Shown here: in pieces, positions 1,191 through 14,738 of the stretch | Layout of the letters: every line of letters starts with the position of its first letter | Position numbering within the stretch: position 1 is the stretch's first letter | DNA from: an uncultured Clostridia bacterium | Lineage (GTDB): Bacteria; Bacillota; Clostridia; Christensenellales; Borkfalkiaceae | Reading direction: 5' to 3' | NCBI GenBank assembly: GCA_964509935.1 | Contig: CAZDZH010000011.1 | Location: 1 to 32,000 of the forward strand | DNA length: 32,000 nucleotides | Position numbers and translations under genes: made by a program | The notes under the pieces: generated by a model | What the model was told of the DNA's origin: nothing | The model's input: only the letters and a program-made list of their open reading frames with translations | Databases searched by the model: none

Positions 1191-1239
1191 AATACTACAA
1201 TTTTTTGCGCGTTCAGACTTAATATATAAACCGCTTAAA

Positions 1240-1268
1240 AGACTCTGCCATAAATCAGGGTCTTTTTT
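1240..1268 (+). terminator. Rho-independent terminator after the CDF gene
   Basis: An 8-bp stem (agactctg 1240-1247 / cagggtct 1256-1263, one G-U pair), an 8-nt loop, then TTTTTT. Confidence 0.75.
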
Positions 1269-1291
1269 AATTAAATGAATGCGATAATTTG

Positions 1292-1320
1292 TTGATTTAT
1301 ATCGTCGATTTTGATATAAT
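1292..1320 (+). promoter_or_regulatory. Promoter of the nine-gene acyl-transfer operon (TTGATT - 17 nt - TGaTATAAT)
   Basis: TTGATT at 1292-1297, extended -10 TG at 1312-1313 and TATAAT at 1315-1320. A 7-bp inverted repeat (TTATATC 1297-1303 / GATATAA 1313-1319) overlaps the spacer and the -10. Confidence 0.65.
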
Positions 1321-1356
1321 TAATGACGCTATTATTTTAAATTCAAGGCTTGAAAA

Positions 1357-3303
1357 ATGACTGACGCAAAAGTTAAAAGCACGCTAGGCGGTTATTCATC
1401 GATAAATACGTACGTAAAAGGTAAAATAGAAAAGTTTTCGGCAACCGACAAGAGTTTTTCATCACTGTTCTCTCTTATGTTTTCCGAGAAGGAAAACGCT
1501 ATGTTCGAGAGTACGGACGGCTATAAAATAAGGACCGTTTCGTACGGCGAAGCCGAGAAGAGGGTGGGGTTGTATTCTAAAAAACTCAATCACCTGTTGC
1601 GTGGCGCGGAAAAGGACTGCTTCGTAGGAATATCCATGCGCAATTCCGAAGAATGGATAGAAATTTTCTGGGCAGTGCTTATGAGCGGATTTAAGCCGCT
1701 TCTGTTCAATACGCGTCTTAGCGAAGAAATACTAAACGGAATATGCTCGACATACGGCGTCTTGGCGGTAATAAGCGACAGGACGCGTTACTGCGCTAAA
1801 ACCGTGTATCCGGAGGAGCTTTTAAACCTTCCTGACGGCGAATCTGACGGCAAATGGGGAAGCGGAATAATAGTGATGTCCTCGGGCACTTCCTTAAACG
1901 TAAAACTGTGCGAATATACGTCCGAGCAGATATGGTATCAGATAAACGACAGCGCAAAAATAATTACCGAATGCAGGCGGATATCAAAGCATTATAACGG
2001 CAGCCTCAAACTGCTTACGTTTTTACCTTTTTATCATATTTTCGGTCTTGTCGCCGTATATATCTGGTTTGCTTTCTTTTCTCGTACTTTCGTCCTTTTA
2101 AAGGATTTAAACGCCGACACGCTTTTAAACACCGTGCGCAAGCATAAAGTTACGCACATTTTTTCCGTTCCGCTCTTATGGAATAAAATCTACGACGCGG
2201 CGATTGCTAAAATAAAGGCGAAGGGTGATAAAACGTATAATAAATTCATAAAAGGTCTTGCAATCAGCGACAAAATTGCAAATGTTCCCCTACTTGGCGA
2301 AGCATTCGCGCGCAAAGCGTTTAAAGAAGTGCGCGACAATATTTTCGGCGACAGCATACAATTTTTAATAACCGGCGGAAGCGCGGTATCGCGTGAAGTT
2401 ATGCGCTTTTTCAACGGTATAGGTTATCGTCTTGCCGACGGGTACGGAATGACGGAAATAGGCATTACTTCCGTAGAGCTTTCCGATAACCGCAAATATC
2501 TCAATTCGCGCTCGGTCGGTCGTCCGTTCTCTTCGGTAGAATACAAAATCAATCAATCGGGTGAGCTTCTGGTTCGCGGAAAATCAATCGCTTCCGCTAT
2601 AATGCAGAACGGAGAGCGCAAACGCGTAGACAACTGCGAGTGGTTCAATACTCACGATTTCGCGCGGTTCGAGGACGGAAGATTTTATATAGAAGGTCGC
2701 CGAGACGACCTGATAGTATGCAGAAGCGGTGAAAATCTCAATCCTGAGCTGATGGAAAGCTTTATTAATATTGACGGAGCAAACGGCGTTTGCATAACCG
2801 CTTCGGGAAGCGGAGAAAGCATTTCGCCCGTGCTTTTGGTAAGCGTGAAAAAATATCTCCCGTCCGATAGATTGCGCGAAATAAAGTCGCAAGCCGCAGA
2901 GCAGATTAAACGCCTTAAACTTGACGGCGACGTAGAAAAGATTTTGTTAATTACCGACCCGCTTTTGCAGGGCGAAGAATTTAAACTGAACAGAATACGA
3001 ATAAAAAACAGTTTGAATTCCGGCATATTGCATATCGTCAATCCCGATATAAGCCGCGTGCAGGAGGACGACGCAGAGCTTGCCGCAGCAGTGTGCGCTT
3101 GCTTCGCGTCGGCGTTGAATAAAGACGTTGCCGATATTTCTTACGACGCGGACTTCTTTACCGATTTGGGAGGCACAAGCTTAGATTATTTCGCCTTGCT
3201 TTCGTTCATTAAAGATGAATTCGGCGCGTCGCTTCCGACGGATGACGAAAGCGGAATAAGCACGGTCAGTCAATTCGTAAAATTCATCAGCTCGCATATT
3301 TGA
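1357..3303 (+). CDS. Acyl-adenylating enzyme (ACSL/FAAL-like AMP-binding domain) fused to a C-terminal PCP-type carrier domain
   Basis: ANL-superfamily motifs are present: a divergent P-loop SSGTSLNVKL, YGMTE, GRRDDLIVCRSGENLNPELME and a FKLNR A10-like Lys. An ACSL-style insertion (KIYDAAIAKIKAKGDKTYNKF) is also present. The C-terminus carries FFTDLGGTSLDYF, a GGxS phosphopantetheine attachment motif with Ser608 at nt 3178-3180. Confidence 0.85.
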   Translation: MTDAKVKSTLGGYSSINTYVKGKIEKFSATDKSFSSLFSLMFSEKENAMFESTDGYKIRTVSYGEAEKRVGLYSKKLNHLLRGAEKDCFVGISMRNSEEWIEIFWAVLMSGFKPLLFNTRLSEEILNGICSTYGVLAVISDRTRYCAKTVYPEELLNLPDGESDGKWGSGIIVMSSGTSLNVKLCEYTSEQIWYQINDSAKIITECRRISKHYNGSLKLLTFLPFYHIFGLVAVYIWFAFFSRTFVLLKDLNADTLLNTVRKHKVTHIFSVPLLWNKIYDAAIAKIKAKGDKTYNKFIKGLAISDKIANVPLLGEAFARKAFKEVRDNIFGDSIQFLITGGSAVSREVMRFFNGIGYRLADGYGMTEIGITSVELSDNRKYLNSRSVGRPFSSVEYKINQSGELLVRGKSIASAIMQNGERKRVDNCEWFNTHDFARFEDGRFYIEGRRDDLIVCRSGENLNPELMESFINIDGANGVCITASGSGESISPVLLVSVKKYLPSDRLREIKSQAAEQIKRLKLDGDVEKILLITDPLLQGEEFKLNRIRIKNSLNSGILHIVNPDISRVQEDDAELAAAVCACFASALNKDVADISYDADFFTDLGGTSLDYFALLSFIKDEFGASLPTDDESGISTVSQFVKFISSHI

Positions 3304-3312
3304 TTTATACCT

Positions 3313-3954
3313 ATGAATAAATTCGTAACGGCATTTACAAAATTAACCGCGTGGCCGGTTCAATTCTTTTGTTTCCGAACCAAAGTATATTTTGAAAGTA
3401 AAAAACAGAAAAACAACCGCGTCAAAGGTGCGGCTATAATAATTTCTAACCATACGGCTTTGTACGATTTCGCGGTGATGCTCTTCGTATTCTGGCGCAG
3501 GATTATACGCTGTCAGGCGGCGGAAGTGCTGTTTAAAAAGAAAGGTCCTCTGCCCTGGTTTCTCAGGGCGTTAGGCTGTATCGAAGTCAACAGAGAAACG
3601 CATAATTTTTCGTTTGTCAGTAAAAGCGAGCAGATACTCGACGACGGCGGGGTAGTGTGTATTTTTCCCGAATCACGACTGCCGAAGCCCGAAGAAGAAA
3701 GACCGCTCGAATTTAAACCGAGCGCGGTTTATATAGCTCTGCAAACAGGCGCGCCGATAATTCCCGTTTACACGAACGGCAGTTATTTCAAACGCAAGCG
3801 GGCGAGGGTAATGATAGGCGATAAAATCTACGCGCGCGAGCTTTTACGCGAAGATTTGACTGAAAAGGAAAATATAGCCAATATTAACGCTATTATAAGA
3901 AAAAAGACGATAGAGCTTAAAGATGAACTCGAAAGAAGAATCAAAAATAAATAA
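3313..3954 (+). CDS. PlsC/LPLAT-family acyltransferase (lysophospholipid acyltransferase-like), copy 1
   Basis: HX4D catalytic motif NHTALYD, FPESRL (a variant of FPEGxR), and the PIIPV block. The protein is about 213 aa. Confidence 0.8.
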   Translation: MNKFVTAFTKLTAWPVQFFCFRTKVYFESKKQKNNRVKGAAIIISNHTALYDFAVMLFVFWRRIIRCQAAEVLFKKKGPLPWFLRALGCIEVNRETHNFSFVSKSEQILDDGGVVCIFPESRLPKPEEERPLEFKPSAVYIALQTGAPIIPVYTNGSYFKRKRARVMIGDKIYARELLREDLTEKENIANINAIIRKKTIELKDELERRIKNK

Positions 3955-4591
3955 GTATAGAACGCCTGATAATTATTTTGTCTACGATTTCATTAAAGTT
4001 ACGGGCGCGCCTTCCGCATTGATTTGGTTAAGACCGAAAAACATTTATTACGGCGATTCTAAAAAGAGAATAAAGGGCGGGGCGATAGTGTGTTGCAATC
4101 ATCTCGGCGTAACCGACCCTATCTACATACATTGCACCTTCTGGTACAGAAGACTGCATTTCGTGGCAATGAAGGAGCTGTTTGAAAGCGGACGGTCGTC
4201 GTGGTTTTTTCACAGGATGCACTGCATACCTATCGACAGAAATAATTTCAACTTCGGGTCGTTTAAAGAAATATGCAAGGCTGTTAACCGCGGAAAGATG
4301 GTCGTGCTTTTCCCCGAAGGCGGAATAAATACCGAGCAATCTAAAATTTCAGATTTTAAGTCGGGTATAGTTTTAATGGCGTATAAAAGCGGCGTGCCGA
4401 TAGTGCCTATATACAACGTACCTAGAAAAAAGTGGTACGACAGACTTAAAACGGTCGTCGGCGAACCGATAAACGTGAAAGAAATTCTCGGTGATAAGCC
4501 GTCTATGAGCGATATTGAAAGAGTGACTGTTTTGCTTCACGAGAGAGAGGTGGAGCTTATGAATTATTATAACGGCAAATGGAAGAAATAA
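3923..4591 (+). CDS. PlsC/LPLAT-family acyltransferase, copy 2
   Basis: HX4D motif NHLGVTD, FPEGG and VPIVPIY. The N-terminal region aligns with copy 1 (FVYDFIKVTG.. versus FVTAFTKLTA..). ATG 3923 is the only in-frame start and overlaps the upstream gene by 32 nt. Confidence 0.8.
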   Translation: MNSKEESKINKYRTPDNYFVYDFIKVTGAPSALIWLRPKNIYYGDSKKRIKGGAIVCCNHLGVTDPIYIHCTFWYRRLHFVAMKELFESGRSSWFFHRMHCIPIDRNNFNFGSFKEICKAVNRGKMVVLFPEGGINTEQSKISDFKSGIVLMAYKSGVPIVPIYNVPRKKWYDRLKTVVGEPINVKEILGDKPSMSDIERVTVLLHEREVELMNYYNGKWKK

Positions 4592-6105
4592 TGGAAAAAG
4601 TAGATTCCGTATGGGCAAAATATACGGATAAAGAGACGTTTGAAAGAATCGTCGATTATGAAAGCGTAGGCGATATGTGGGCGCACTGCGTTAAGGAGTT
4701 TTCGCAGAAAACGGCAATAGTCGACGGCGAGGAATATACCTATTCTCGGCTTGACGGATACGTGGCGCGTTTCCGCACGGCTCTTAAAAATAACGGTTTG
4801 GGTAAAGGCGGTCTTACAGGTATTTTATTGCCCAATTCGGTAGGGTTCGTCACCGCTTTTCTTGCCGTCACGACTTACGGAGCCGCCGCGGTGCTGTTCC
4901 CCGTACATATGGAAATCGGTAAAATACGCAGTTATATGCAGAAATTCAGCGTAACCGCATTGATTCACGACTATTCCACGGCTGAAACGGCGCAAAAAGC
5001 CGTTGACGGCGGCGAATGTACGCTAATAAATGTAAATAACCTTCCCGAAGAAAGCACGCCAGCAAACGAGTGTTCCCCGTCAGACGCGTGCGCGGTAATA
5101 TTTACGAGCGGAACGGACGGAAGAGGAAGGGGAGCTCTGCTAAATAACAGGGCTGTTATGCGAGGAGTTAAAAACGGCTGTTTCGGATATAAGGACGTGT
5201 TCGGACAGCGTTATTTCCTTATTTTGCCTCTTACTCACGTGTTCGGGCTTGTAAGGAATATGCTAACGCCCCTATATACGGGCAGTTCGCTTTATATCAG
5301 CGACAGAAACAAAAACCTGTTCAAAGAGATTTCTAAATTCAATCCGACTGTACTTGTTCTCGTGCCGGCACTTGCGGAAATGGCGTTGAATTTTTCAAAA
5401 CATTTTAAAAGAAATATGCTGGGTGACAGCGTAAAGTATATAATATGCGGCGCGGCGGCGGTTCCTCCTTATCTTGTTAAGAGCTACGCTGAATACGGTA
5501 TAAAGCTTTTCCCCGGCTACGGATTGACCGAAAGCGCGAATCTTGTAAGCGGAAATCCCGAAAGTCTTAATAAACCGGATTCTGTGGGGATCATTTACGA
5601 GGGGCTGGATTATAAAGTTGTGGACGGCGAGCTGTGGCTTAAAGGCGTCAACATGATGGACGGGTATCTTAACGATTCCGCCGAAAATGCCTCTGCTTAC
5701 TGCGGCGATTGGTTTAAGACGGGCGACCTCGTAAAGTTCGACGACGAAGGATTCCTGTATATAGTTGGCAGGAAAAAGGATATTATCGTATTGTCTAACG
5801 GCGAAAACGTTTCTCCCGTTGAGATAGAAACTAAATTTACCGATTTGTCCGTCGTTCAGGACGCTTTGGTGTACGAGGGTAAAAACGAAAACGGCAAACA
5901 GATTCTCGTTCTGGAAGTTTATCCGAGGAACGTAGAGCTTGAAAAACTTGAAAAGGCAGAGCGAGAGCCTTATTTAAGAAAGGTTATTGCCGATGTGAAC
6001 GAAACTTTGCCGTCGTTCGGGCGAATCCAGAAAGTTATTATCAGGGACAAGGACTTTGAAAGAAATTCCTCAATGAAAATAATCAGGAAAAAACATAATG
6101 ACTAA
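4591..6105 (+). CDS. AMP-dependent acyl-CoA/acyl-ACP synthetase (fatty-acid ligase-like)
   Basis: FTSGTDGRGRG P-loop, GYGLTE, WFKTGD, GRKKDIIVLSNGENVSPVEIE and a terminal SSMKIIRK (A10 Lys). I prefer ATG 4591, which forms a TAATG overlap with the upstream stop and has GGAAGA upstream. The ORF track's ATG 4579 is the alternative start. Confidence 0.85.
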   Translation: MEKVDSVWAKYTDKETFERIVDYESVGDMWAHCVKEFSQKTAIVDGEEYTYSRLDGYVARFRTALKNNGLGKGGLTGILLPNSVGFVTAFLAVTTYGAAAVLFPVHMEIGKIRSYMQKFSVTALIHDYSTAETAQKAVDGGECTLINVNNLPEESTPANECSPSDACAVIFTSGTDGRGRGALLNNRAVMRGVKNGCFGYKDVFGQRYFLILPLTHVFGLVRNMLTPLYTGSSLYISDRNKNLFKEISKFNPTVLVLVPALAEMALNFSKHFKRNMLGDSVKYIICGAAAVPPYLVKSYAEYGIKLFPGYGLTESANLVSGNPESLNKPDSVGIIYEGLDYKVVDGELWLKGVNMMDGYLNDSAENASAYCGDWFKTGDLVKFDDEGFLYIVGRKKDIIVLSNGENVSPVEIETKFTDLSVVQDALVYEGKNENGKQILVLEVYPRNVELEKLEKAEREPYLRKVIADVNETLPSFGRIQKVIIRDKDFERNSSMKIIRKKHND

Positions 6106-6352
6106 GGAAGAAATTAAAGAAAAATTACGGGAAATACTAAAACTATCTACAGATTGCACGGAAGAGCAGGCAATGTCTTACGACGAGCAATCGGGATTGA
6201 CTAGCGACCTCGGCTTGAATTCGGTCGGAATGCTTTATCTAGTTATCGCAGTCGAAGAATTTTTCAATATAGAGTTCGACGACGTGAATTTCAGCGATTT
6301 TAAAGTCGTGGGCGACGTAGTCGATTATATTTACGGAAAAAAGAACGGTTAA
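6098..6352 (+). CDS. Stand-alone acyl carrier protein
   Basis: An 84-aa acidic four-helix-type protein with DLGLNSVGML. The attachment Ser42 is at nt 6221-6223. The gene overlaps the upstream ligase by 8 nt. Confidence 0.8.
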   Translation: MTKEEIKEKLREILKLSTDCTEEQAMSYDEQSGLTSDLGLNSVGMLYLVIAVEEFFNIEFDDVNFSDFKVVGDVVDYIYGKKNG

Positions 6353-6354
6353 AA

Positions 6355-7410
6355 ATGAAGTGGGTGCTTGAAGAGGCGCAGTCAGGAGATATCGTACGCG
6401 TTCGCCTCGGCGAAATTTATCATTACGGAATTTTCGTTAGCGAAAGCGAGGTAATACAGTTCGGTATGCCTCCCGTAAACGTTGAAATGCTTGCGCGCGT
6501 CGACGTGAGGGTTTGCTCAACTGATATAGATACTTTCCGTTGCGGCAAATTTCCGGAAGTCGCGAAGCTTTCGCTTATAGAAAGATTAAAGCGCTTTTCT
6601 CCCGAAAAGACTGTGGCGACGGCTCGCGCAAGGTTAGGCGAATGTGGATATAATATAATTCACAATAATTGCGAGCATTTCGTTTACGAATGCGTATTCG
6701 GGACAAAATACAGCGCACAGACGGAAGACGTAAGGCAAAAATTCAGGAATCTTCCCATTACCGATATTTACGTTTCGCCTATCCCCGAACACGTTAAAAT
6801 TACTGGACTTTCCTGCGAGGGAAGAAACGCCGAAATAGAAGCTTGCTCCAATATAAAGGTAAAGGAGCAGAAATACTATGTTTGGAAACTTCTTGAAGCG
6901 GCGTTACAATATTCCCTCGGCTTAGACGCGGGCAAAATTACGTTCCGACGTTCGGAAAACGGGAAATGGGGCTGTAAAGAGTGTGAATTTTCGCTGTCGC
7001 ACAGTCAAGGCGCGGCGGCGGTCATCATCTCGCGCAGTCCCGCAGGAATTGACCTCGAAAAAATCAAACATACGGAGAAAACAGCGCGATATGCGCAAAA
7101 AGTTCTTACCGTAACGGAAAATGAAATTTTTTCAGCCTTGTCCGAAGAGGATAAGGACGACTTGTTTTACGGCTTTTGGTCCGCAAAGGAAAGTATATTC
7201 AAACAATCCGGCGAACGCTCTTTCAATCCTGTCGCAATCGAAGTCTCGTCATATATGGGCGTGAAATCAGGTATAGTCCGAATCGAAGGCGAGGATTACG
7301 CGCTTTCCTTTGTATCGGATACGAAAGCGAAAGAACGGTTTTATATTTATAATGGCGGGCAAACTACCGCTTTTAATGGTTTTACCCGAACACTTAAATT
7401 AGATAAATAA
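6355..7410 (+). CDS. Fusion protein: N-terminal LRAT/PLAAT-like (NlpC/P60 Cys-His) domain plus C-terminal Sfp-type 4'-phosphopantetheinyl transferase
   Basis: N-terminus: the YHYGIF His box (His23) and the NNCEHFV catalytic Cys box (Cys106, nt 6670-6672). C-terminus: FSLSHS, GIDLEKI and WSAKESIFK, which are Sfp-type motifs 1-3. Confidence 0.8.
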   Translation: MKWVLEEAQSGDIVRVRLGEIYHYGIFVSESEVIQFGMPPVNVEMLARVDVRVCSTDIDTFRCGKFPEVAKLSLIERLKRFSPEKTVATARARLGECGYNIIHNNCEHFVYECVFGTKYSAQTEDVRQKFRNLPITDIYVSPIPEHVKITGLSCEGRNAEIEACSNIKVKEQKYYVWKLLEAALQYSLGLDAGKITFRRSENGKWGCKECEFSLSHSQGAAAVIISRSPAGIDLEKIKHTEKTARYAQKVLTVTENEIFSALSEEDKDDLFYGFWSAKESIFKQSGERSFNPVAIEVSSYMGVKSGIVRIEGEDYALSFVSDTKAKERFYIYNGGQTTAFNGFTRTLKLDK

Positions 7411-7448
7411 CACCCCCGCGCTTAATCGGCGCGCTCACGGAGAAAACT

Positions 7449-8378
7449 ATGGACTGGTATTGGATAGCTTTAATATTAACCGTCGCGATAATCGCGCCGT
7501 TTATCCTTGCCTGTTTTACGGTTTTCTATAAAATATTCGGCAGGGGGAAAGAAGTTTCGCTCGCCGACGCCGACCTCGACGGCACGCAGTATATGCCCTA
7601 TAAGGATAAAATATGCACGGCGATAAGAGAGGTTGAGGCTTTACGTTTCAGAAAGGTACGGATAGAGAGAGAATGCAGTCTTTTCGGATATTATTACGAT
7701 TGCGGCGGTAAAAATACCGTTATTATGTTTCACGGCTACCGAGCCACGCCGTTCAATAATTTTGCCGTTTCCTGCAAAATTTTTATGGAAAAAGGCTACA
7801 ACGTGCTTATGCCCGTTCAGCGCGGACACGGCGAAAGCGGAGGAAAATTCATAACCTTCGGAGTAAAAGAACGGCTTGATTGCCTTGCCTGGACGGATTT
7901 TGCGGTTAAAGAATTAAAGCCCGAAAATATTGTTTTATACGGCGTATCTATGGGTAGTTTTTCTTTGATGTGCATATCCGACAGATTGAGCGATAAAAAC
8001 GTTAAAGCTCTTATCTGCGATTGCGGTTACCTCAACGCTTATGACGAGATAGGTCTGGAAATGAAGAGGAGAGCGGGTTTTCTTTATAAGATTATGATGC
8101 CTTTTATAAGGCTCGGCGCGATAGTATTCGGGGGATTCGACCCCGCGAAAGACAACGCGTGCGAATATCTTTCTAAGGCTTCCGTTCCCGTGTTCTTCAT
8201 ACACGGCGACGATGACAGAATTGTGCCCGTAGAGTGTGCGAAAAGGGCTTACGAAGCCTGTGATTCGCGAAAGTCTATATATTACGTGCAAAATTGCGGA
8301 CATGCCCAATCCTTTCTTGCCGACGAAGGCAAACTCAGCGAAAAGCTGTTTGATTTTCTGAACGACGCGCTTAAATAA
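7449..8378 (+). CDS. Membrane-anchored alpha/beta hydrolase (lysophospholipase/esterase-like)
   Basis: An N-terminal TM helix, the GVSMG nucleophile elbow, an HGDDDRIVP acid region and CGHAQSF His. GGAG lies 8 nt upstream of the ATG. Confidence 0.8.
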   Translation: MDWYWIALILTVAIIAPFILACFTVFYKIFGRGKEVSLADADLDGTQYMPYKDKICTAIREVEALRFRKVRIERECSLFGYYYDCGGKNTVIMFHGYRATPFNNFAVSCKIFMEKGYNVLMPVQRGHGESGGKFITFGVKERLDCLAWTDFAVKELKPENIVLYGVSMGSFSLMCISDRLSDKNVKALICDCGYLNAYDEIGLEMKRRAGFLYKIMMPFIRLGAIVFGGFDPAKDNACEYLSKASVPVFFIHGDDDRIVPVECAKRAYEACDSRKSIYYVQNCGHAQSFLADEGKLSEKLFDFLNDALK

Positions 8379-8413
8379 GCGTTGTATTATAAACCTGATT
8401 ATAAGGAGTTATT

Positions 8414-9343
8414 ATGAAAAAATTTATAGTTATGGCGGACGTGTGCTGCGATTTATCGGAAGAATTGAGAAAGCGTTTCGATATTCAATACATAAAAGGG
8501 CATATGACTCTGCCCGACGGTTCTACCGCGGAAACAACCTGCGACTGGAATACAATGGACGCAAAGCAATTTTATGCTTCGCTTAAAAACAAAAAGAACG
8601 TATATACTACCTCGCCTGCGAATATCGACGAATTTGCCAATGCATTCGAAGATTACGTTAAAGACGGTTACGACGTTCTTTGCCTTACCATTTCTTCTGC
8701 TCTTAGCGGCACTTACAGCTTCGCAAGCAAAGCGAAAGAACAGGTATTGGCTAATTATCCGGACGCTAAAATTTACGTTATCGATTCGCTGCGTTTTTCA
8801 AACGGGCTCGGGCTTCTTACTATCCACGCAAGTATTCTGCGCGAACAGGGAAAAACCATCGAAGAGACGGCGGCTTGGCTTGAAGAGAATAAAAACCGTT
8901 TCCATCAGTCGGGCTGGTTAGATGATTTGTCTTTCGTGGCGCAGAAGGGTCGAATTTCTCATAGCAAGGCTTTCTTCGGCACTTTGATTGGTATTAAACC
9001 GATAGGCGAATTTGACTATAACGGACTTACCACCGTTCTCGGCAACGCAAAGGGCGAAAAGGCGGCTTACAGCGTACTGTTAAATTACATAGAGAAGGTT
9101 ATCGAAAACCCCGAAGAGCAGATAATTCTGATTGCTCAGACCGACAGAAAGAGGCAAGCCGAAGCCTATAAAGTAATGCTGGAAGAGAAGTTCCACCCCA
9201 AGGAAATTATCATTACGGACGTTTATCCTGCGGATGGAATAAACTTAGGACCCGGACTGATGGCTGCATACTATATGGGCAAACCCATCTCCCAAGGACT
9301 TGTGGACGAGCGCGCGATAATAGAGGATTTGCTTGCGAAATAA
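8414..9343 (+). CDS. fakB: DegV-family fatty-acid-binding protein (FakB-like)
   Basis: An N-terminal VMADVCCDL block (equivalent to the DegV TDSxxDL block), SSALSGTY, and about 309 aa. A strong AAGGAG RBS is present. Confidence 0.8.
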   Translation: MKKFIVMADVCCDLSEELRKRFDIQYIKGHMTLPDGSTAETTCDWNTMDAKQFYASLKNKKNVYTTSPANIDEFANAFEDYVKDGYDVLCLTISSALSGTYSFASKAKEQVLANYPDAKIYVIDSLRFSNGLGLLTIHASILREQGKTIEETAAWLEENKNRFHQSGWLDDLSFVAQKGRISHSKAFFGTLIGIKPIGEFDYNGLTTVLGNAKGEKAAYSVLLNYIEKVIENPEEQIILIAQTDRKRQAEAYKVMLEEKFHPKEIIITDVYPADGINLGPGLMAAYYMGKPISQGLVDERAIIEDLLAK

Positions 9344-9346
9344 TTT

Positions 9347-10984
9347 ATGGATATATATAACTTAGACGGTTGCGTCTTTTACGATATGGTATGCAACGGT
9401 CTGGCAAATATCAGACTCAGCGAAATAACCATAAACAGACTCAATCTGTTCCCCGTTCCGGACGGCGATACGGGCACGAATATGCGCCTTACGTTGGAAG
9501 GAGGAGTTGCGGCTTGCAAAAAAACTCCGTCAATCGGCGAATATGCTAACAAGTTAGCCCGCGGTATGCTTATGGGCGCCAGAGGTAATTCGGGCGTAAT
9601 TCTCTCTCAGATATTCAAAGGAATCGCGCTCGCGCTTACGGATAAACAGACGGCGACTGCGATAGATTTTGCATACGCTCTGGTCAGCGGTTATAAGATG
9701 GCTTATTCGGCGGTGGTTCACCCCACCGAGGGAACTATTCTTACGGTCGCGCGAGAAGGCATAGAAAAAATCATTAACGAAATCAACGGCGCAACAACTA
9801 TAAACGCCCTGTTTACCGCATATCTGCATCAGATGGAAATAACTCTGTCACATACGCCCGAAATGTTGGAAGTATTAAGGGAAGCGGGATTCGTAGACAG
9901 CGGCGGTCAGGGATTGGTTACAATTTTCAGGGGTATGCTTAAATTCCTTACGGGCGACGTGCTGGAAACCGAACTGCCCGAACAACCTGCCGCGAATCAT
10001 GTCGACGAAGCGTCGTTTGACGCGGACAGCGAACTTGATTTCGGATATTGTACCGAGTTTATATTGCAGTTGCAGAATATAAAATGCAACCCCGCTCTGT
10101 TCGATTTAAATTGTTTTATATCCTTTCTCGAAACGCAGGGCGATTCTATCGTCGCGCTCAAAGAGGAAACGCTGGTAAAGGTGCATATACATACAAAAAT
10201 GCCCTCCGCTATTATAGCAAAAGCGCAGGAATACGGCGAGTTTATTTCGTTTAAAATGGAAAATATGGCTTTACAGCACAATGAAAATTTTACTAAAAGC
10301 CAAAGCAAAAAGTCGCATAAAGCCATTGCTTACGTCTGCGTGGCACAGGGCGACGGAATAATTTCTCTGTTTGAAAGTCTGGGGTGCGACGTGGTTCTTA
10401 ACGGCGGACAGACTATGAATACTTCCGCGGAAGAATTTGTAGACGCGATAAACAGCCTGAACGCCGATTCTGTTATCGTGATGCCGAACAATAAGAACAT
10501 AATTTCCGCAGCTTTGCAGGCGAAAGAGCTTTGCGGAAGGCAGAACGTTTACGTGCTTGAAACGCAGTCGGTAGCCGAGTGCTATTTTGCACTTTCAACA
10601 ATGCTTTCCGACGGAAGCGATTGTACGGTACAGCTTGAAGCAATGCGCCGCGGCTATCAGAACGTAACAACCGTCGCTGTGGCCAAAGCCGCCCGCGATT
10701 CTTTTGTCGGCGGAGTGGAATGTAAAGCAGGTCAGTACGTCGCCGTTTTAAACGGCAAAATAGTGTGCGCCGCAGCCGACCCGATTGTTGCGCTGCGCGA
10801 CGGTATAAAGTACGATAAATCCAACCTTGACAAAGAAATAATGCTTGTCTTTACGGGTCAGGCACTTAGCGAAGACGCCGCCGAGGGATTGGAAGAGGCG
10901 CTCTTTTCGGAATTTCCCGATATGGAAACGGGAATTATCGACGGCGGTCAGGACGTGTACGACCTTATCGTAGGGTTAAGTTGA
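9347..10984 (+). CDS. fakA: DAK2/DhaL-domain protein of the YloV/FakA type (fatty acid kinase catalytic subunit-like)
   Basis: The DhaL motif FPVPDGDTGTNM near the N-terminus, about 545 aa, and a C-terminal DegV-like half typical of YloV/FakA. The gene starts 3 nt after the DegV stop. Confidence 0.8.
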   Translation: MDIYNLDGCVFYDMVCNGLANIRLSEITINRLNLFPVPDGDTGTNMRLTLEGGVAACKKTPSIGEYANKLARGMLMGARGNSGVILSQIFKGIALALTDKQTATAIDFAYALVSGYKMAYSAVVHPTEGTILTVAREGIEKIINEINGATTINALFTAYLHQMEITLSHTPEMLEVLREAGFVDSGGQGLVTIFRGMLKFLTGDVLETELPEQPAANHVDEASFDADSELDFGYCTEFILQLQNIKCNPALFDLNCFISFLETQGDSIVALKEETLVKVHIHTKMPSAIIAKAQEYGEFISFKMENMALQHNENFTKSQSKKSHKAIAYVCVAQGDGIISLFESLGCDVVLNGGQTMNTSAEEFVDAINSLNADSVIVMPNNKNIISAALQAKELCGRQNVYVLETQSVAECYFALSTMLSDGSDCTVQLEAMRRGYQNVTTVAVAKAARDSFVGGVECKAGQYVAVLNGKIVCAAADPIVALRDGIKYDKSNLDKEIMLVFTGQALSEDAAEGLEEALFSEFPDMETGIIDGGQDVYDLIVGLS

Positions 10985-11014
10985 TTTGACTATTTGAATT
11001 TTAAATTTGTAATT

Positions 11015-11053
11015 AAATCGGGGCGAACCTTGTACCAAGGTTCGCCCCGATTT
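11015..11053. terminator. Strong bidirectional hairpin terminator between convergent operons
   Basis: A perfect 18-bp stem (aaatcggggcgaaccttg / caaggttcgccccgattt) with A/T-rich flanks on both sides. It sits between the stop at 10984 (+) and the stop at 11060 (-). Confidence 0.85.
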
Positions 11054-11059
11054 GAAAAA

Positions 11060-11902
11060 TTATCCGTTTTCTTCTATGAATTGTTTAAAATTTATAAATT
11101 CATAGCCCGTTTTTTTTAAAAATCCTATAAGCTTTCCTATTCTTTCGAGATAGTTCTTTCTGCTGCATTGGATATACAATTTATCGTGCAGGGAAAGATT
11201 ATCGGGGTAAGACAGCTTGTCTTTAAAAACCTCAAACGGGTGAACGTAGAAAAGATATGCGTCAGCGTTTTTTAAGTATCGCTTGACGGTAAACGTAATA
11301 AATGGTAATAATCTGAAATATCCCCCGCCCGAAACGGGAATGCGCCTGCCGAAATAATGCGAAGAGCAGGGTTTGAATTCGTAAAAGCCGTCGTTTTCAT
11401 AAGCGACATCGTTTAATTTTTTAAAGCGCGATAAATCTATTTTGCCTGAATTGACGGCGGGTGAAAAATCGAGGTCGCTGGAATCGTATTTAAACCCCAT
11501 AGAGTAAAGCTTTGCGACTGTTTCGTCGCTGACGCCGAAGCACGGGGCGCGGTAGCCTATAATTTTCGTTCCGAATTTTTCTTCGAGCACGCGTTTAGCG
11601 GTAACGGTATCGTTTATGAATCGCTTGTCCGACTGCGTAAGGGGCGAAACGTGGTTTAGTCCGTGTAAGGCTATTTCGTGTCCTTCTGAAATAGCATTCT
11701 TTAACTGACTGCCGCATTTATCCGCAAACGATGCAACCGTAAAAAACGTGCCTTTTATGCCGTGTTCGTTTAACAGTCCGCAAAAATCTTCTACCGACTG
11801 TTCGCATTGCGGACAGCTTTCCGGGCGGTAGTTTAATTCTTTTAAACAGCGAGCGTCGAGATAACTTTCGACGTCCATGCTCATAAACGCTAATTTACGC
11901 AT
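11060..11902 (-). CDS. Polysaccharide deacetylase (NodB fold) with a DUF3473-like C-terminal region; no signal peptide
   Basis: SMDVESY (a variant of the DVED motif 1), HEIALHGLNH (the His-His metal motif), YRAPCF and VSGGGYFRLLPF (DUF3473-type signature). It overlaps the upstream gene by 8 nt. Confidence 0.8.
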   Translation of the reverse strand: MRKLAFMSMDVESYLDARCLKELNYRPESCPQCEQSVEDFCGLLNEHGIKGTFFTVASFADKCGSQLKNAISEGHEIALHGLNHVSPLTQSDKRFINDTVTAKRVLEEKFGTKIIGYRAPCFGVSDETVAKLYSMGFKYDSSDLDFSPAVNSGKIDLSRFKKLNDVAYENDGFYEFKPCSSHYFGRRIPVSGGGYFRLLPFITFTVKRYLKNADAYLFYVHPFEVFKDKLSYPDNLSLHDKLYIQCSRKNYLERIGKLIGFLKKTGYEFINFKQFIEENG

Positions 11903-12869
11903 CGAATTTCTCTTGTATAAACTTTTGTATCGCCTCGTCGTACGCTTCTTTGTTGTTTATTCTGATATGAGAATGAGCTCCCTTATCGAACCATACGAGC
12001 TGTTTATCCGATTTACATTTGTCGTAAAGTATTTGCGCCTTTTCGGGTAAAGAAAACTTATCTTCCTTACTGTACAGGAATAGAATAGGCGCTTCAAGCT
12101 TGTCGATGCATTTTATTGGTCCGTACGTCATTCTGACGCCCGAATACAAGCGCATTATAAGCGCAATTTCCCAAATGAAAGGATAGATGGGGCGTTTTTC
12201 CTCTATCATATGGTTTTTAAAGGTTTCGTAAAAGGTAGTATACATACCGTCGGCGACTATACCCTGCATATAATCGGGGCAAGCCTTGCTAGTCAAAGCG
12301 TACAACGCCGTGGCAGAACCTATGCAAATGCCGTGCAATAAAATCTTTTTGTTCAGGAACTTATCGTGAAGGAGTTTCGCCCAGGCGAGTATATCCTTGT
12401 ATTCTTTCAGCCCGACGCAATCGTATTTTCCCTCGCTTAGACCGTGCGCCCTGTTGTCTATCACAAGCACGTTATAACCGGCTCGCTTATAGGGTTCGGA
12501 AAAATAATAGCTGTACCAAAGTGATTCAGTTCTGCCGGGTATCACTATGACTGCGCGGTCGCAGCCGAAGTCGAAGTATTCGCCGACAAGCTTAAATCCC
12601 TCGCTCGTAACCGAAACTTCTGTAATATATTCTCTGTTTTTTTCCGCCCATTGCTTGCCCGTATCGTACATCGCTACCTGTTCGGCATTGTCTGGGGCGG
12701 AGCACTCTCTTCCCCATTTTTCCGATGAGGTGCGTACGAGTTGGCTTTTATATACTTTTAAGGCAATAAACCAAGGGGGGAGAAATACGAAAACTATTAG
12801 TGCGACGAGCGCGCCGACGATAGAAAGACTTATTATCAGACCGTAGTTTGTAAGTACAGAAGTTATCAT
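11895..12869 (-). CDS. Membrane-anchored alpha/beta hydrolase with Cys at the nucleophile-elbow position
   Basis: An N-terminal TM helix. It is a paralogue of the 7449..8378 protein (GYNVLVIDNRAHGLSEGK versus GYNVLMPVQRGHGESGGK). The elbow is GICIG, with Cys182 encoded by TGC at 12324-12326, where the paralogue has GVSMG. Confidence 0.8.
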   Translation of the reverse strand: MITSVLTNYGLIISLSIVGALVALIVFVFLPPWFIALKVYKSQLVRTSSEKWGRECSAPDNAEQVAMYDTGKQWAEKNREYITEVSVTSEGFKLVGEYFDFGCDRAVIVIPGRTESLWYSYYFSEPYKRAGYNVLVIDNRAHGLSEGKYDCVGLKEYKDILAWAKLLHDKFLNKKILLHGICIGSATALYALTSKACPDYMQGIVADGMYTTFYETFKNHMIEEKRPIYPFIWEIALIMRLYSGVRMTYGPIKCIDKLEAPILFLYSKEDKFSLPEKAQILYDKCKSDKQLVWFDKGAHSHIRINNKEAYDEAIQKFIQEKFDA

Positions 12870-12884
12870 AAGTTTACCGTAAAA

Positions 12885-13955
12885 TTATTCGTATAAAGAT
12901 TTGTTTTCGGCTGTCGCGTAGCTTGTAATACAGAACGCGGTTACCGTAAAAAGGTCGGCAAGTATCTTTGAAAGAACGGGGTTTGCAGTAGAAATTAATA
13001 GCCCGCTTAGTATGCCGCAGTCAATTAAGCTTATTATCAGAGCGGTTAAAACGATTTTGATTATGCGCTTCAAAAAAGTGCGACGGTTTATTCCTCGGTA
13101 AAGAGCCGACGCTGTTATTTCTAATAGCAAGCAAAGAACCGTTGCCGCCGCGCAGCTCAGCCCGCAGCATAAAGCGGCGTAGGAGCAAGCGTCGAGAGAA
13201 AAATCGGTAACGCAGTTCTGCAAAATAAAGAAAAGCGCCAGATTGCAGATTAATGCGAAAACGAAAGGTAATGAGTACTGCATCACCACTCCGCAAATCC
13301 TGCAAAAATCCCTTACGGGTTTGAAATGGGTAGCCTGATTATTGTCTATGTAAACGGTTGCAATCGCCGTTTCTTTAATGGGAATTCCGCAACGCAGACA
13401 TCTTACGAGGACGTTCATTTCGTATTCGTACTTAGTTCCGCCTACGGATAGCATAAACGGCAGGAGTTCGCTTCCGAAAGCGCGCAGACCCGTCTGCGTA
13501 TCGTGCAATCGCCTGTGGTCGCAAAGCCTAAGTAGACCTCTTGCAACAACGTTTCCGAACGTGGATTTAAAGGGGATTTTACCTTCAAATTTTCTGCTGC
13601 CGAGCACAAGTCCGCAGCCTGTTTGCATGTATGTTTGAGCAACTTTGAGAATATCTTCGGGTTTGTGTTGTCCGTCGGCGTCTGCCGTAACTATTACCTT
13701 TTCTCCGCTTTGCGAAAGTATATGATAAAACGCCGTTTTTAACGCAGCGCCTTTGCCTGCGTTTGTCGGGTGTTTCAACAGCGTTAAATTATCGTATTCT
13801 TCGGCTCTTTCAAATATTTCCTGCGAACCGCGCGAGCCGTCGTCCACAAGAATGACCGAGCATCCCTTTAATGTGGCGGTTATGCCGTCGAGAACCTGCA
13901 AAAGCGATTCGTTCGGCTCGTAGGCGGGAATAACCACCGCAATTTCTCTTTTCAT
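12885..13955 (-). CDS. GT2-family glycosyltransferase (GtrB/DPM1-like polyprenyl-phosphate sugar synthase type) fused to a 4-TM GtrA-like C-terminal domain
   Basis: VVIPAYEPNES, ILVDDGS, TADADGQH (DxD) and DTQTGLRAF. The C-terminal approx. 130 aa form four hydrophobic helices. I trimmed the start to ATG 13955 (MKREIAVV), which has GGAGA 8 nt upstream. Confidence 0.8.
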   Translation of the reverse strand: MKREIAVVIPAYEPNESLLQVLDGITATLKGCSVILVDDGSRGSQEIFERAEEYDNLTLLKHPTNAGKGAALKTAFYHILSQSGEKVIVTADADGQHKPEDILKVAQTYMQTGCGLVLGSRKFEGKIPFKSTFGNVVARGLLRLCDHRRLHDTQTGLRAFGSELLPFMLSVGGTKYEYEMNVLVRCLRCGIPIKETAIATVYIDNNQATHFKPVRDFCRICGVVMQYSLPFVFALICNLALFFILQNCVTDFSLDACSYAALCCGLSCAAATVLCLLLEITASALYRGINRRTFLKRIIKIVLTALIISLIDCGILSGLLISTANPVLSKILADLFTVTAFCITSYATAENKSLYE

Positions 13956-13983
13956 ATTTTTTTCTCCGAATCCGTATGTTATT

Positions 13984-14012
13984 ATAATACCACACATAAA
14001 CGTTAAAATCAA
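13984..14012 (-). promoter_or_regulatory. Candidate promoter of the GT2-hydrolase-deacetylase operon (TTGATT - 17 nt - TGgTATTAT)
   Basis: On the minus strand, TTGATT is plus-strand aatcaa at 14007-14012 and TATTAT is plus-strand ataata at 13984-13989, with a 17-nt spacer. Confidence 0.5.
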
Positions 14013-14052
14013 TTCAAAGAAAGGTATAAGATAAAAATAGTAAAACTTGAAA

Positions 14053-14081
14053 TTGACAAATCTGGTAACATATAGTATAAT
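14053..14081 (+). promoter_or_regulatory. Consensus promoter (TTGACA - 17 nt - TATAAT) for the N/G/Y-rich membrane protein gene
   Basis: TTGACA at 14053-14058 and TATAAT at 14076-14081, with an exact 17-nt spacer. It is divergent from the GT2 operon promoter. Confidence 0.75.
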
Positions 14082-14106
14082 AAAATCGCAAATAAAGGAG
14101 GAATAT

Positions 14107-14712
14107 ATGAACGATCAGGAAAAGAACGACGAGCTGTTCGGTTTCGACAACGCAAACGGCGTAAATCCTAACGGAAATTACGGCAATCAAAGTCAGTCTG
14201 CTGGCGGAAATTATTACAATAACGGTTATAATAATCCCAATAACGGCAATAACGGTTATTATGGTAATAATAACAACTATAACGGCGGTTATAACGGGAA
14301 TAATTATAACGGCAATAACTACGGCGGCAACAACTATTATAACAATAACGGCAATAATTCCGGAGACGATCCCGGTCCTTGGAAGGTTTTTGCTATCGTT
14401 GGGTTCAGTATTGGCATAGTTGCTATCGTTCTCGGCGGTTTAGCGGGATTGTATTCATTTCTCGCTTTAATCAATATAAATTCTCAAAACGTCAACTATG
14501 CGCTTTTTGCATCGTTGAGCGTCCTCTTTTTTATATATGGAATAGCGTCGGGCGTGCCTGCTATCGTTTTTTCCGTGCTGGGATTAAGGTCAACCCGTCG
14601 CGTAGATAAGGCAAAGACGGGCTTGATACTTTCAGTAGTGGGGACGGGAATTGCTTTTGTTTCTTTTATAATGGCGATAGCAATTATCCCTACTATAGCT
14701 ACGTTTATTTAA
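14107..14712 (+). CDS. Membrane protein with an Asn/Gly/Tyr-rich low-complexity N-terminus and a 4-TM C-terminal domain (DUF4190-like architecture)
   Basis: I trimmed the start to ATG 14107, which has AAAGGAGG 6 nt upstream. About 85 residues consist almost entirely of N, G and Y (e.g. NGNNYGGNNYYNNNGNN), followed by four hydrophobic helices. Confidence 0.7.
   Translation: MNDQEKNDELFGFDNANGVNPNGNYGNQSQSAGGNYYNNGYNNPNNGNNGYYGNNNNYNGGYNGNNYNGNNYGGNNYYNNNGNNSGDDPGPWKVFAIVGFSIGIVAIVLGGLAGLYSFLALININSQNVNYALFASLSVLFFIYGIASGVPAIVFSVLGLRSTRRVDKAKTGLILSVVGTGIAFVSFIMAIAIIPTIATFI
14149..14364 (+). repeat. Degenerate codon-level repeat tract (AAT/AAC-GGC-TAT units) encoding the N/G/Y-rich region
   Basis: Reiterated aataacggc, aattataac and ggcaataac units lie in frame inside the CDS. 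Confidence 0.6.
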
Positions 14713-14738
14713 ATTAAACTTTCTTCCGGTGATTATTT

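Follow-up and report, generated by a model that had tools for sequence, protein, structure and literature searches.

A widely conserved carrier-protein and acyltransferase operon of gut Clostridia, with a tentative role in scavenging or remodelling membrane lipids

What use would a gut clostridium have for an operon that encodes two adenylating enzymes, two acyl carriers and two acyltransferases, and no enzyme that builds an acyl chain? The question is raised by nine genes at positions 1357-10984 of a 32,000-nucleotide stretch of DNA from an uncultured Clostridia bacterium (GenBank assembly GCA_964509935.1, contig CAZDZH010000011.1, positions 1 to 32,000 of the forward strand). Here we refer to the whole stretch as the window, in whose numbering all positions are given, and to the nine genes as g1 to g9. 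An earlier sequence-only reading had described them as a self-contained operon for acyl activation, carriage and transfer. Our own answer is tentative and, in our judgement, quite possible: a chromosomal carrier-protein pathway which scavenges or remodels exogenous acids, most likely fatty acids, on membrane glycerolipids. The operon and its flanking signals were annotated as follows.

1237-1272, + strand: intrinsic terminator of the upstream cation-efflux (cation diffusion facilitator, CDF) gene; hairpin at 1237-1266 with an 11-bp stem, then U6
1292-1320, + strand: sigma-70-like promoter candidate; TTGATT, 17 nt, TG-TATAAT, 10/12 matches, extended -10 TG
1357-3303, + strand: g1, divergent ANL adenylating enzyme with a C-terminal carrier like an acyl carrier protein (ACP); adenylation-thiolation (A-T) didomain of 648 amino acids (aa), predicted phosphopantetheine site Ser608
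3313-3954, + strand: g2, PlsC-family HX4D acyltransferase "a"; 213 aa, PF01553 at 70.6 bits, no transmembrane segment (no hydrophobic 19-mer)
3923-4591, + strand: g3, PlsC-family HX4D acyltransferase "b"; 222 aa, PF01553 at 84.3 bits
4579-6105, + strand: g4, canonical ANL acyl-AMP/acyl-carrier ligase; likely start 4591, 504 aa, AMP-binding at 184.5 bits plus AMP-binding_C_3
6098-6352, + strand: g5, free atypical ACP; 84 aa, Ser42 in D-L-G-L-N-S, PP-binding at 30 bits
6355-7410, + strand: g6, PLAAT/LRAT-like Cys-His domain plus Sfp-type 4'-phosphopantetheinyl transferase (PPTase); LRAT at 60.2 bits, ACPS at 42.5 bits
7449-8378, + strand: g7, alpha/beta hydrolase with an N-terminal membrane anchor; Ser167-Asp256-His285, Hydrolase_4 at 53.7 bits, catalytic domain predicted cytoplasmic
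8414-9343, + strand: g8, DegV/FakB-type fatty-acid-binding protein; DegV at 200.7 bits
9347-10984, + strand: g9, FakA/YloV-type fatty acid kinase catalytic subunit; Dak2, FakA_M and FakA_C
11013-11055, both strands: strong bidirectional hairpin where g9 and the deacetylase gene converge; 18-nt perfect inverted repeat

The open reading frame (ORF) list places the nine genes co-directionally on the + strand, where they either overlap or are separated by 38 nt at most. The junctions are a 9-nt gap (g1/g2), a 32-nt overlap (g2/g3), TAATG with the g4 start at 4591 (g3/g4), an 8-nt overlap (g4/g5), and gaps of 2 nt (g5/g6), 38 nt (g6/g7), 35 nt (g7/g8) and 3 nt (g8/g9). An independent gene caller, applied to an identical metagenomic contig, returned the same gene set and the equivalent of the 4591 start, which gives g4 its 504 aa; the genes and junctions of the earlier description were thus borne out. 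Its list of parts also held, as every domain that it had named scored above the Pfam gathering score: AMP-binding and PP-binding in g1, Acyltransferase (PF01553) in g2 and g3, AMP-binding and AMP-binding_C_3 in g4, PP-binding in g5, LRAT and ACPS in g6, Hydrolase_4 in g7, DegV in g8, and Dak2, FakA_M and FakA_C in g9. Among the 27 window proteins scanned with Pfam there was no ketosynthase (KS), ketoreductase (KR), dehydratase (DH), enoyl reductase (ER) or other reductase, and no condensation domain, in agreement with the earlier statement that chain-building enzymology is absent.

The claim of a terminator on each side was upheld in that both hairpins are real. The upstream hairpin (1237-1266) has a folding energy of -12.2 kcal/mol and a z-score of -4.1, equalled by 0 of 200 shuffles; it is a good terminator for the CDF gene and marks where the operon is bounded upstream. 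The downstream hairpin is far stronger, with -34.5 (z -9.6) on the + strand and -32.2 (z -8.4) on the other, but its + strand U-tract is weak. The single promoter that had been proposed is present as a site, but its proof through scan enrichment failed (31 promoter-like sites observed versus 22.4 +/- 5.1 expected, not a significant enrichment); since the scan sites as a class are not clearly enriched, we regard this promoter as plausible only. A scan of the region with Rfam returned tRNA-Thr only, with no riboswitch or leader RNA. Where g7 meets g8 (8367-8382) there is a weak hairpin of 6 bp with a poor run of T, which might act inside the operon as a partial terminator and separate the carrier module from DegV/FakA.

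Is this arrangement peculiar to one contig? With one genome taken per GTDB species, 96 stretches were found to encode a relative of the LRAT-ACPS protein g6, and 80 loci were examined. All of them come from gut or rumen Clostridia, namely Oscillospiraceae, Ruminococcus, Acutalibacteraceae and a few Lachnospiraceae, together with some mislabelled bins. Searching the window proteins against them by tblastn recovered all nine genes in 63 of the 80 loci, strictly colinear in 51, at median identities of 32-57%; most incomplete loci appear to be cut by a contig end. The same gene pairs are spaced by median gaps of -23 to +17 nt (50-61 loci). Given this conserved tight spacing and gene order, the nine genes form one genuine and ancient operon unit, and the set is co-conserved in related genomes, a point on which the sequence-only reading had staked its proposal. 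The catalytic residues are invariant or nearly so across the orthologues, and the active sites of the operon thus appear to be under selection.

The limits of the conserved block were then drawn by clustering all ORFs of the 80 loci and the window. The consensus order is g1, PlsC, PlsC, g4, ACP, LRAT (with or without PPTase), g7, DegV, an optional MFS_2 transporter, FakA, and three further elements which we denote d2, C7 (one to four copies) and abH3. No family outside this series recurs in more than 8 of the 80 loci, and the flanking ORFs are heterogeneous. Therefore the block runs from g1 to abH3, and the unit should be widened to about 1237-15803 to take in the following features.

11895-12869, - strand: d2, alpha/beta hydrolase anchored in the membrane, its nucleophile a Cys; G-I-C182-I-G, Asp270, His299, Hydrolase_4 plus Abhydrolase_1
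14107-14712, + strand: small membrane protein with an N/G/Y-rich linker and transmembrane helices, positional analogue of C7; no Pfam match, no zinc ribbon
14739-15803, + strand: abH3, third alpha/beta hydrolase with a signal-anchor (KKKK plus a transmembrane segment); Ser166-Asp252-His286, Hydrolase_4 at 64.2 bits, predicted extracellular

The operon is thus not self-contained with nine genes, as had been proposed, but goes on with the Cys hydrolase d2, whose orthologue follows g9 in 69 of the 80 loci (mostly directly and on the same strand, although it is inverted in the window), with C7 in 52 loci, with abH3, and often with MFS_2 (32 loci). Nor is the set of nine genes fixed. The PPTase half of g6 is absent from about 20 loci, which have a stand-alone LRAT domain of about 135-140 aa. 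Three Lachnospiraceae loci lack g4, keep the free ACP and have their two PlsC-type genes fused, and DegV/FakA is absent from at least four loci. In L021, g1 and g2 are missing and DegV/FakA is divergently placed. The Lachnospiraceae variant and L021 hint at two modules, one of g1 and g2 and the other of g3, g4 and g5.

The MFS_2 (GPH-like) transporter, which is absent from the window, lies within the operon at one of three positions: between DegV and FakA (23 loci), between g1 and PlsC, or upstream (examples are L018:12902-14239 and L048:12913-14280). Its identification as an Mfsd2a-like lysolipid transporter was considered and found unsupported, with no PDB sequence match and only weak GPH/MelB similarity. 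In L048, a gene for an NAD-dependent glycerol-3-phosphate dehydrogenase (GpsA, 3885-4883) was observed directly upstream of g1 on the same strand.

The same comparison bears on whether the fatty acid kinase pair belongs to the pathway at all, or whether the locus holds two uncoupled neighbours, a g1-g7 carrier and acyltransferase module and a housekeeping DegV/FakA pair. Such a split would fit the loss of the pair from the block in L001, L003, L023 and L071, its divergent position in L021, the ordinary YloV type of g9, and the weak hairpin at 8367-8382. On the other hand, the pair is embedded in the block, and in most loci d2, C7 and abH3, genes found without the pair as well, come after it in the same orientation; the median gaps are only 17.5 nt between the hydrolase gene and DegV and 10.5 nt between FakA and the next hydrolase gene (50 loci each), and in 23 loci the transporter sits between DegV and FakA themselves. 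We therefore consider an uncoupled pair distinctly unlikely.

Both members of the pair belong to known families. g8 passes the cut-off of TIGR00762 (200.7 versus 99.7) and g9 that of TIGR03599 YloV (519.8 versus 396.1), and they are thus members of the DegV and YloV/FakA families, as the earlier description of a FakB/FakA-like pair had it. Each stays below the more specific model: g8 scores 114.5 against the FakB1 equivalog, whose cut-off is 350, and g9 scores 401 against the Staphylococcus aureus FakA equivalog, whose cut-off is 975.

Which acids, then, are activated, and onto which carriers? g1 (AMP-binding 123 bits, PP-binding 38.6 bits) has motifs that are divergent yet conserved, namely SSGTSxxVK with K183, GYGMTE, TxD434, GRxDD and K543; 65-67 of 67 orthologues retain K183, T432/D434, G447-R448-x-D450-D451, K543 and S608. 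Its AlphaFold2 (AF2) model (predicted local distance difference test score, pLDDT, 84.8) is that of a generic A-carrier didomain, whose closest folds by Foldseek are the A domain-peptidyl carrier protein (A-PCP) unit of McyG, MenE, the A-PCP of CAR, and MatB. At least 1742 proteins belong to the family, all of A-T architecture and none of them named. Of 73 g4 orthologues, 72-73 keep the P-loop T(G/S)GTTGKSKGA, GYGLTE, TGD, GRxKD and the A10 Lys; by PDB sequence search the nearest solved relatives of g4 are oxalyl-CoA synthetase, FadD13 and MenE and, more distantly, AasS, and it matches the Aas/LplT-type family PRK06814 (E 3.5e-35). As for the carriers, Ser42 of g5 is conserved in 67/67 orthologues, and all AcpP NCBIfam models fall below their cut-off for this protein. 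The carrier fused to g1 had been called PCP-type; it scores as ACP-like (TIGR00517, PRK00982) and not as a PCP of nonribosomal peptide synthetases (NRPS).

The A4 motif of both ligases is LPxxH (LPFxH in g1, invariant among its orthologues), as in activators of acyl or aryl acids, and the Asp-containing FDxS of amino-acid activators is absent from both. The reading of this motif follows established knowledge of the NRPS code, by which g1 and g4 would load carboxylic acids rather than amino acids. Amino-acid loading of the DltA/DltC kind was accordingly rejected, as was supported by the lack of any MBOAT/DltB or DltD among the proteins found. Homology made no substrate call, as the PDB and Foldseek searches with g1 and g4 returned a mixture of MenE, MatB, oxalyl-CoA synthetase, FadD13, CAR and NRPS A domains. 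That the operon loads preformed acids, as previously proposed, is consistent with two ligases of the carboxylic-acid type and no chain builders; that these acids are long-chain fatty acids is, on the other hand, inferred from the neighbouring genes and not from the ligases themselves.

The acceptor side is represented by g2 and g3. In g2, H47 and D52 are conserved in 59/61 orthologues and P119-E120 and R122 in 61/61, with motif III FPE(S/G)R. In g3, H60/D65 and the Pro-Glu pair are conserved in 62/62, and motif III reads FPEG-H/G without the usual Arg. The sole solved relative of both by PDB sequence search is PlsC of Thermotoga maritima (5kym), and their next-best NCBIfam matches are Aas/LplT-type acyl-ACP--phospholipid acyltransferases (E 2e-14 and 6e-19, respectively). 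In the three Lachnospiraceae loci already mentioned (L058:8458-9735, L072 and L077), a g2-type and a g3-type enzyme are fused in one protein of 425 aa, and because of this fusion it is probable that g2 and g3 act at successive positions of one scaffold. Ornithine-lipid synthesis of the OlsB/OlsA kind was rejected, as no N-acyltransferase of the OlsB type was found; g2 gave only a partial and weak OlsF match (E 2.2e-4, 19.9 bits versus a cut-off of 620).

The most unusual protein of the operon is g6, whose LRAT-like domain spans aa 1 to ~130 (6355 to ~6750) and is followed by a complete PPTase at aa ~135-351. The C-terminal half is an Sfp-type PPTase, with the pseudo-dimeric two-lobe fold (about 220 aa) and the D..E and W..KE..K motifs that bind Mg and CoA. 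The N-terminal half, which scores 60.2 bits against a gathering score of 24.3 for LRAT (PF04970), belongs to the LRAT/PLAAT Pfam family and departs from it in triad and anchor. Foldseek comparison of the AF2 model (pLDDT 91.4) retrieved Sfp (4mrt, E 4.6e-11, 221 columns) as well as PLAAT3, PLAAT4 and HRASLS2 (TM-score 0.75-0.82). All 42 fused homologues share H23, Q35, C106 (in HNNCEHF), D233, E235, W275, K278, E279 and K283, and His23 and Cys106 of the LRAT domain are conserved in 63/63 orthologues. The second His of PLAAT enzymes is absent, the aligned residue being Gln35 (Gln in 45 and Ala in 15 of the 63); a polar third residue such as Gln is compatible with NlpC/P60 catalysis. The C-terminal membrane anchor of PLAAT proteins is also absent, as g6 has no hydrophobic 19-mer and ends in the PPTase.

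The fusion itself is common. We found 439 relatives of LRAT-ACPS at 90% clustering, the best 120 of which all have both domains; they bear generic names (lecithin retinol acyltransferase family or PPTase superfamily) and come from Clostridia and Ruminococcaceae metagenome-assembled genomes. When the LRAT domain alone was searched exhaustively, 307 representatives came up at E up to 1e-10, mostly of 330-350 aa, and this LRAT subfamily is therefore dominated by the fused architecture. One protein from that search (P0346), of 1125 aa, is unusual in having nine LRAT-like stretches in tandem.

The three hydrolases are paralogous, and their predicted topologies differ, with abH3 facing outward and g7 and d2 inward. 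In g7 and d2 an uncharged N-terminus leads into one transmembrane segment followed by a K/R cluster. Residues K and R are richer after this segment than before it in 42/57 orthologues of g7, and the cytoplasmic face is predicted for 47/53 orthologues of d2, while in abH3 they are richer before the segment in 39/43. The GxSxG Ser, D256 and H285 of g7 are each conserved in 57/57, so the anchored serine hydrolase that the earlier reading placed in the operon is confirmed with its N-terminal anchor and its Ser167 triad. The triad of abH3 is conserved in 43/43 (it is syntenic in 43 loci), and Cys182, D270 and H299 of d2 in 53/53. The best PDB match of d2 is the esterase Pf2001 (5g59, E 7e-17), and the hydrolases weakly match lipase, monoacylglycerol lipase and lysophospholipase. 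Alpha/beta hydrolases with a Cys nucleophile, such as polyhydroxyalkanoate synthase and BAAT, tend to be acyltransferases with thioester donors. As an invariant Cys replaces the nucleophilic Ser, the comparison suggests that d2 may be an acyltransferase rather than an esterase. Together with the LRAT domain it would make, we infer, two acyl-Cys-forming catalysts suited to acyl-S-carrier chemistry.

It is unlikely, in our view, that the PLAAT-like domain, with help from d2, acts as a carrier-dependent transacylase, which would move chains directly between phospholipid and the phosphopantetheine thiol of the dedicated carriers, or from acyl-carrier to a lipid amine or hydroxyl, giving lipids like N-acyl-phosphatidylethanolamine (NAPE) or other bioactive N- or O-acyl lipids.

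C7 raises another use for acyl-Cys chemistry. Proteins of this family have a CxxC...CxxC zinc ribbon at the N-terminus, a linker rich in Q/P/Y and 2-4 transmembrane helices, and occur as one to four tandem copies between d2 and abH3 (for example at L010:12482-13066 and L044:10389-10820); against the "CCC motif membrane protein" model they stay sub-threshold (33 bits versus a cut-off of 65). The 14107-14712 protein of the window gave no tblastn match to the C7 family, and its likeness is positional only. If d2 and the PLAAT-like domain passed acyl chains from the carriers to C7 or to a cell-wall polymer, the tandem copies beside d2 in 52 loci, the pair of acyl-Cys-forming catalysts, and the deacetylase and glycosyltransferase genes near the operon in the window would be accounted for. 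Protein or envelope-polymer acylation is nevertheless extremely unlikely, for no conserved acceptor motif was identified in C7, and the two PlsC-type enzymes indicate glycerolipid acceptors.

How would these parts work together in the tentatively favoured pathway of scavenging and remodelling? Outside the cell, abH3 would act on dietary or host lipids and release fatty acids or lysolipids, and MFS_2, where present, would import a lipid-derived substrate. DegV would bind the free fatty acid and FakA would convert it to acyl-phosphate; in parallel, the PPTase half of g6 would prime both carriers, g1 would load its own carrier in cis, and g4 would load the free ACP g5. From the carriers, the predicted peripheral enzymes g2 and g3 would pass the chains on to an acceptor, either glycerol-phosphate or a lysolipid. 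The LRAT-like domain, d2 and g7, acting on the cytoplasmic side of the membrane, may edit or exchange chains, by release of mis-loaded carriers or by transacylation of the Lands-cycle type.

The lipid theme is drawn from several lines: FakA and DegV pass their cut-offs, PlsC 5kym is the solved relative of g2 and g3, and g2-g4 match Aas/LplT families; g6 has the PLAAT fold and the NCEHF motif, and the hydrolases have their weak lipase-type matches; GpsA lies upstream in L048, PlsC is fused to PlsC in three loci, and the block has been passed down vertically along with the core chromosome. Several observations weigh the other way. The acyltransferases score below the trusted cut-off of TIGR00530 (AGP_acyltrn), at 60.8 for g2 and 80.9 for g3 versus 102.95, and the motif III Arg that g3 lacks is the residue which binds the phosphate of lysophosphatidate. 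The carriers are not AcpP equivalogs, the PPTase is of the Sfp type that is commoner in secondary metabolism, and g1 and g4, whose nearest solved relatives include MenE, MatB and oxalyl-CoA synthetase, fix neither chain length nor acid. Neither PlsX, PlsY, CdsA nor a head-group enzyme was found in the conserved block of the 80 loci and the window, the four loci named above have no DegV/FakA in the block, and we know of no phospholipid pathway with a PLAAT-like domain or a Cys-type alpha/beta hydrolase.

Several of these points would be explained by a specialised-lipid cluster, in which two different acids, two carriers and a dedicated acceptor yield a diacylated envelope or signalling lipid and not bulk phospholipid. 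Candidate acceptors would include a sugar or a polyprenyl-linked amino sugar, an amino alcohol, an anchoring lysolipid and the amine of phosphatidylethanolamine, the last of which would give an N-acyl lipid. Two genes that adjoin the operon in the window, and are inverted there together with d2, are relevant here.

11060-11902, - strand: polysaccharide-deacetylase-family protein; Polysacc_deac_1 plus DUF3473, weak NodB- and ArnD-like matches
12885-14012, - strand: family 2 glycosyltransferase (GT2) like polyprenyl-phosphate amino-sugar synthases (PpgS/ArnC-like), with C-terminal transmembrane helices

Besides this GT2 and deacetylase, the Sfp-type PPTase, the non-AcpP carriers, an A-T didomain that folds like the A-PCP of McyG and CAR, acyltransferases below the PlsC cut-off and a g3 without its motif III Arg would all suit a specialised product. 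Mammalian PLAAT enzymes make N-acyl-phosphatidylethanolamine, and aryl-polyene clusters also pair two ACPs with an AMP-ligase, an LPLAT-type acyltransferase and a GT2. However, synteny of the GT2 was detected in none of the 80 loci, and the deacetylase is syntenic (after d2) in only 5 (L029, L046, L048 and L057 are examples). The block is inherited with the core chromosome over several families instead of being patchy, the scanned proteins include no condensation, KS, reductase or tailoring enzyme, and housekeeping-type FakA/DegV is embedded in at least 63 loci. A specialised lipid is thus possible but rather unlikely. The sequence-only reading had left open whether scavenged acids reach a glycerolipid or a specialised lipid is made; the context favours the former.

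The habitat suggests yet another purpose, that of defence against toxic free fatty acids, by which captured unsaturated long-chain acids would be esterified to neutral or storage esters. All hosts are gut or rumen Clostridia, living where such acids are abundant and bactericidal, and the functions of fatty-acid binding, kinase, ligase, acyltransferase and esterase occur together; in staphylococci, Fak and lipase-mediated esterification detoxify such acids. We regard detoxification as very unlikely all the same, since there is no regulator, efflux pump, or wax-ester or DGAT-type enzyme (a DAGAT match is sub-threshold, E 0.004) and the two-carrier design would not be needed for simple detoxification.

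Among known systems, Aas/LplT of Escherichia coli (with AasC/LpaT of Chlamydia) taken together with FakAB appears functionally nearest. As in Aas/LplT, the PRK08633/PRK06814 fusions and AasC-LpaT of Chlamydia, an ANL ligase would load a carrier and a PlsC-family HX4D enzyme acylate a lysophospholipid, often with a major facilitator transporter alongside. Unlike Aas, the operon has its activities separate and duplicated (two ligases, two carriers, two acyltransferases), with dedicated carriers and its own Sfp-type PPTase, and adds the PLAAT-like domain, three hydrolases and FakAB. It has no LplT; the window holds no MFS gene, and the transporter of its relatives is MFS_2/GPH-like. As its proteins are separate and score 24-121 bits against equivalog cut-offs of 886-1349 (NF005959, NF006386 and NF005291), membership of the Aas family was rejected.

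g8 and g9 share the DegV plus Dak2/FakA_M/FakA_C architecture with FakA/FakB of Firmicutes (S. aureus, Streptococcus, Enterococcus), whereas the studied Fak systems feed PlsX, PlsY and PlsC via the housekeeping ACP and lie outside any operon of ligase, carrier and acyltransferase. With mammalian PLAAT (HRASLS) and LRAT proteins, g6 shares the fold, the H-box His and the catalytic Cys of NCEHF, which implies an acyl-Cys thioester intermediate; it differs in the missing C-terminal anchor, in Gln or Ala for the third triad His, in being PPTase-fused or stand-alone, and in its carrier-protein context. A promiscuous PPTase encoded with its carriers also recalls the Sfp-type PPTase and type II thioesterase (TEII) of NRPS and polyketide synthase (PKS) clusters, and by this analogy the adjoining enzyme, if it cleaves acyl-thioesters, could regenerate mis-primed carriers. 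The candidate editor is here not an alpha/beta-hydrolase TEII but a papain-like PLAAT fold fused to the PPTase, and an assembly line is lacking. Membership of an NRPS, PKS or FASII (fatty acid synthesis of type II) cluster was rejected, as condensation, ketosynthase and reductive domains are lacking. In aryl-polyene lipid anchoring, and with ElbD of Myxococcus (ligase-ACP-reductase-AGPAT), an adenylated acid on an ACP is esterified by an AGPAT/LPLAT enzyme onto a glycerolipid, which is a likeness in general design; unlike these systems, the operon has no KS, KR, DH or reductase domains.

Each part falls into a known enzyme family, and the logic of activating, carrying and esterifying an acid is known as well. 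We found no literature on this gene set (LRAT/PLAAT, PPTase, DegV, FakA, PlsC and acyl-ACP synthetase in Clostridia) and no curated NCBIfam equivalog, which agrees with the earlier remark that this is not a characterised cluster; what we did not find described is the gene combination, the LRAT-PPTase fusion, the dual private carriers and the Cys-type hydrolase.

The operon joins two routes that have been studied in Gram-positives almost only in pathogens and lactic acid bacteria, and is kept by uncultured Oscillospiraceae, Ruminococcus, Acutalibacteraceae and their relatives (roughly 100 species-level genomes), bacteria that abound in the human and ruminant gut. Should the scavenging and remodelling pathway hold, it would explain how these bacteria build membranes from dietary and host lipids, and would bear on resistance to FASII inhibitors and on the shaping of the microbiome by dietary fat. 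A discrete N- or O-acyl lipid would amount to a new class of host-facing microbial lipid, and transacylation by the PLAAT-like domain and d2 to a new bacterial Lands-cycle or N-acyl-lipid pathway, related to mammalian PLAAT, in abundant uncultured gut Clostridia. On either reading, the LRAT-PPTase fusion offers a testable way into PLAAT-type function in bacteria.

The surroundings of the operon in the window are those of a native chromosome. GC content is flat across the region (0.41-0.48), and the neighbours are a CDF transporter, tRNA-Thr, a DnaD/DnaB-like protein, SbcCD, a signal peptidase, DnaB helicase, Sua5 and RpiB. Given this uniform GC and the core genes for replication and repair on either side, the operon is native chromosome and not an island; with no inverted repeats found around the inverted d2 segment, an origin by horizontal transfer in an island or mobile element was rejected. 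Just downstream of SbcCD lies an ORF of 563 aa (21517-23208, + strand) with no Pfam match at E up to 0.001. The cation-efflux ORF, as listed at 180-1190, overlaps tRNA-Thr (131-206, - strand), and the gene caller gives it 297 aa, which puts its real start near 296.

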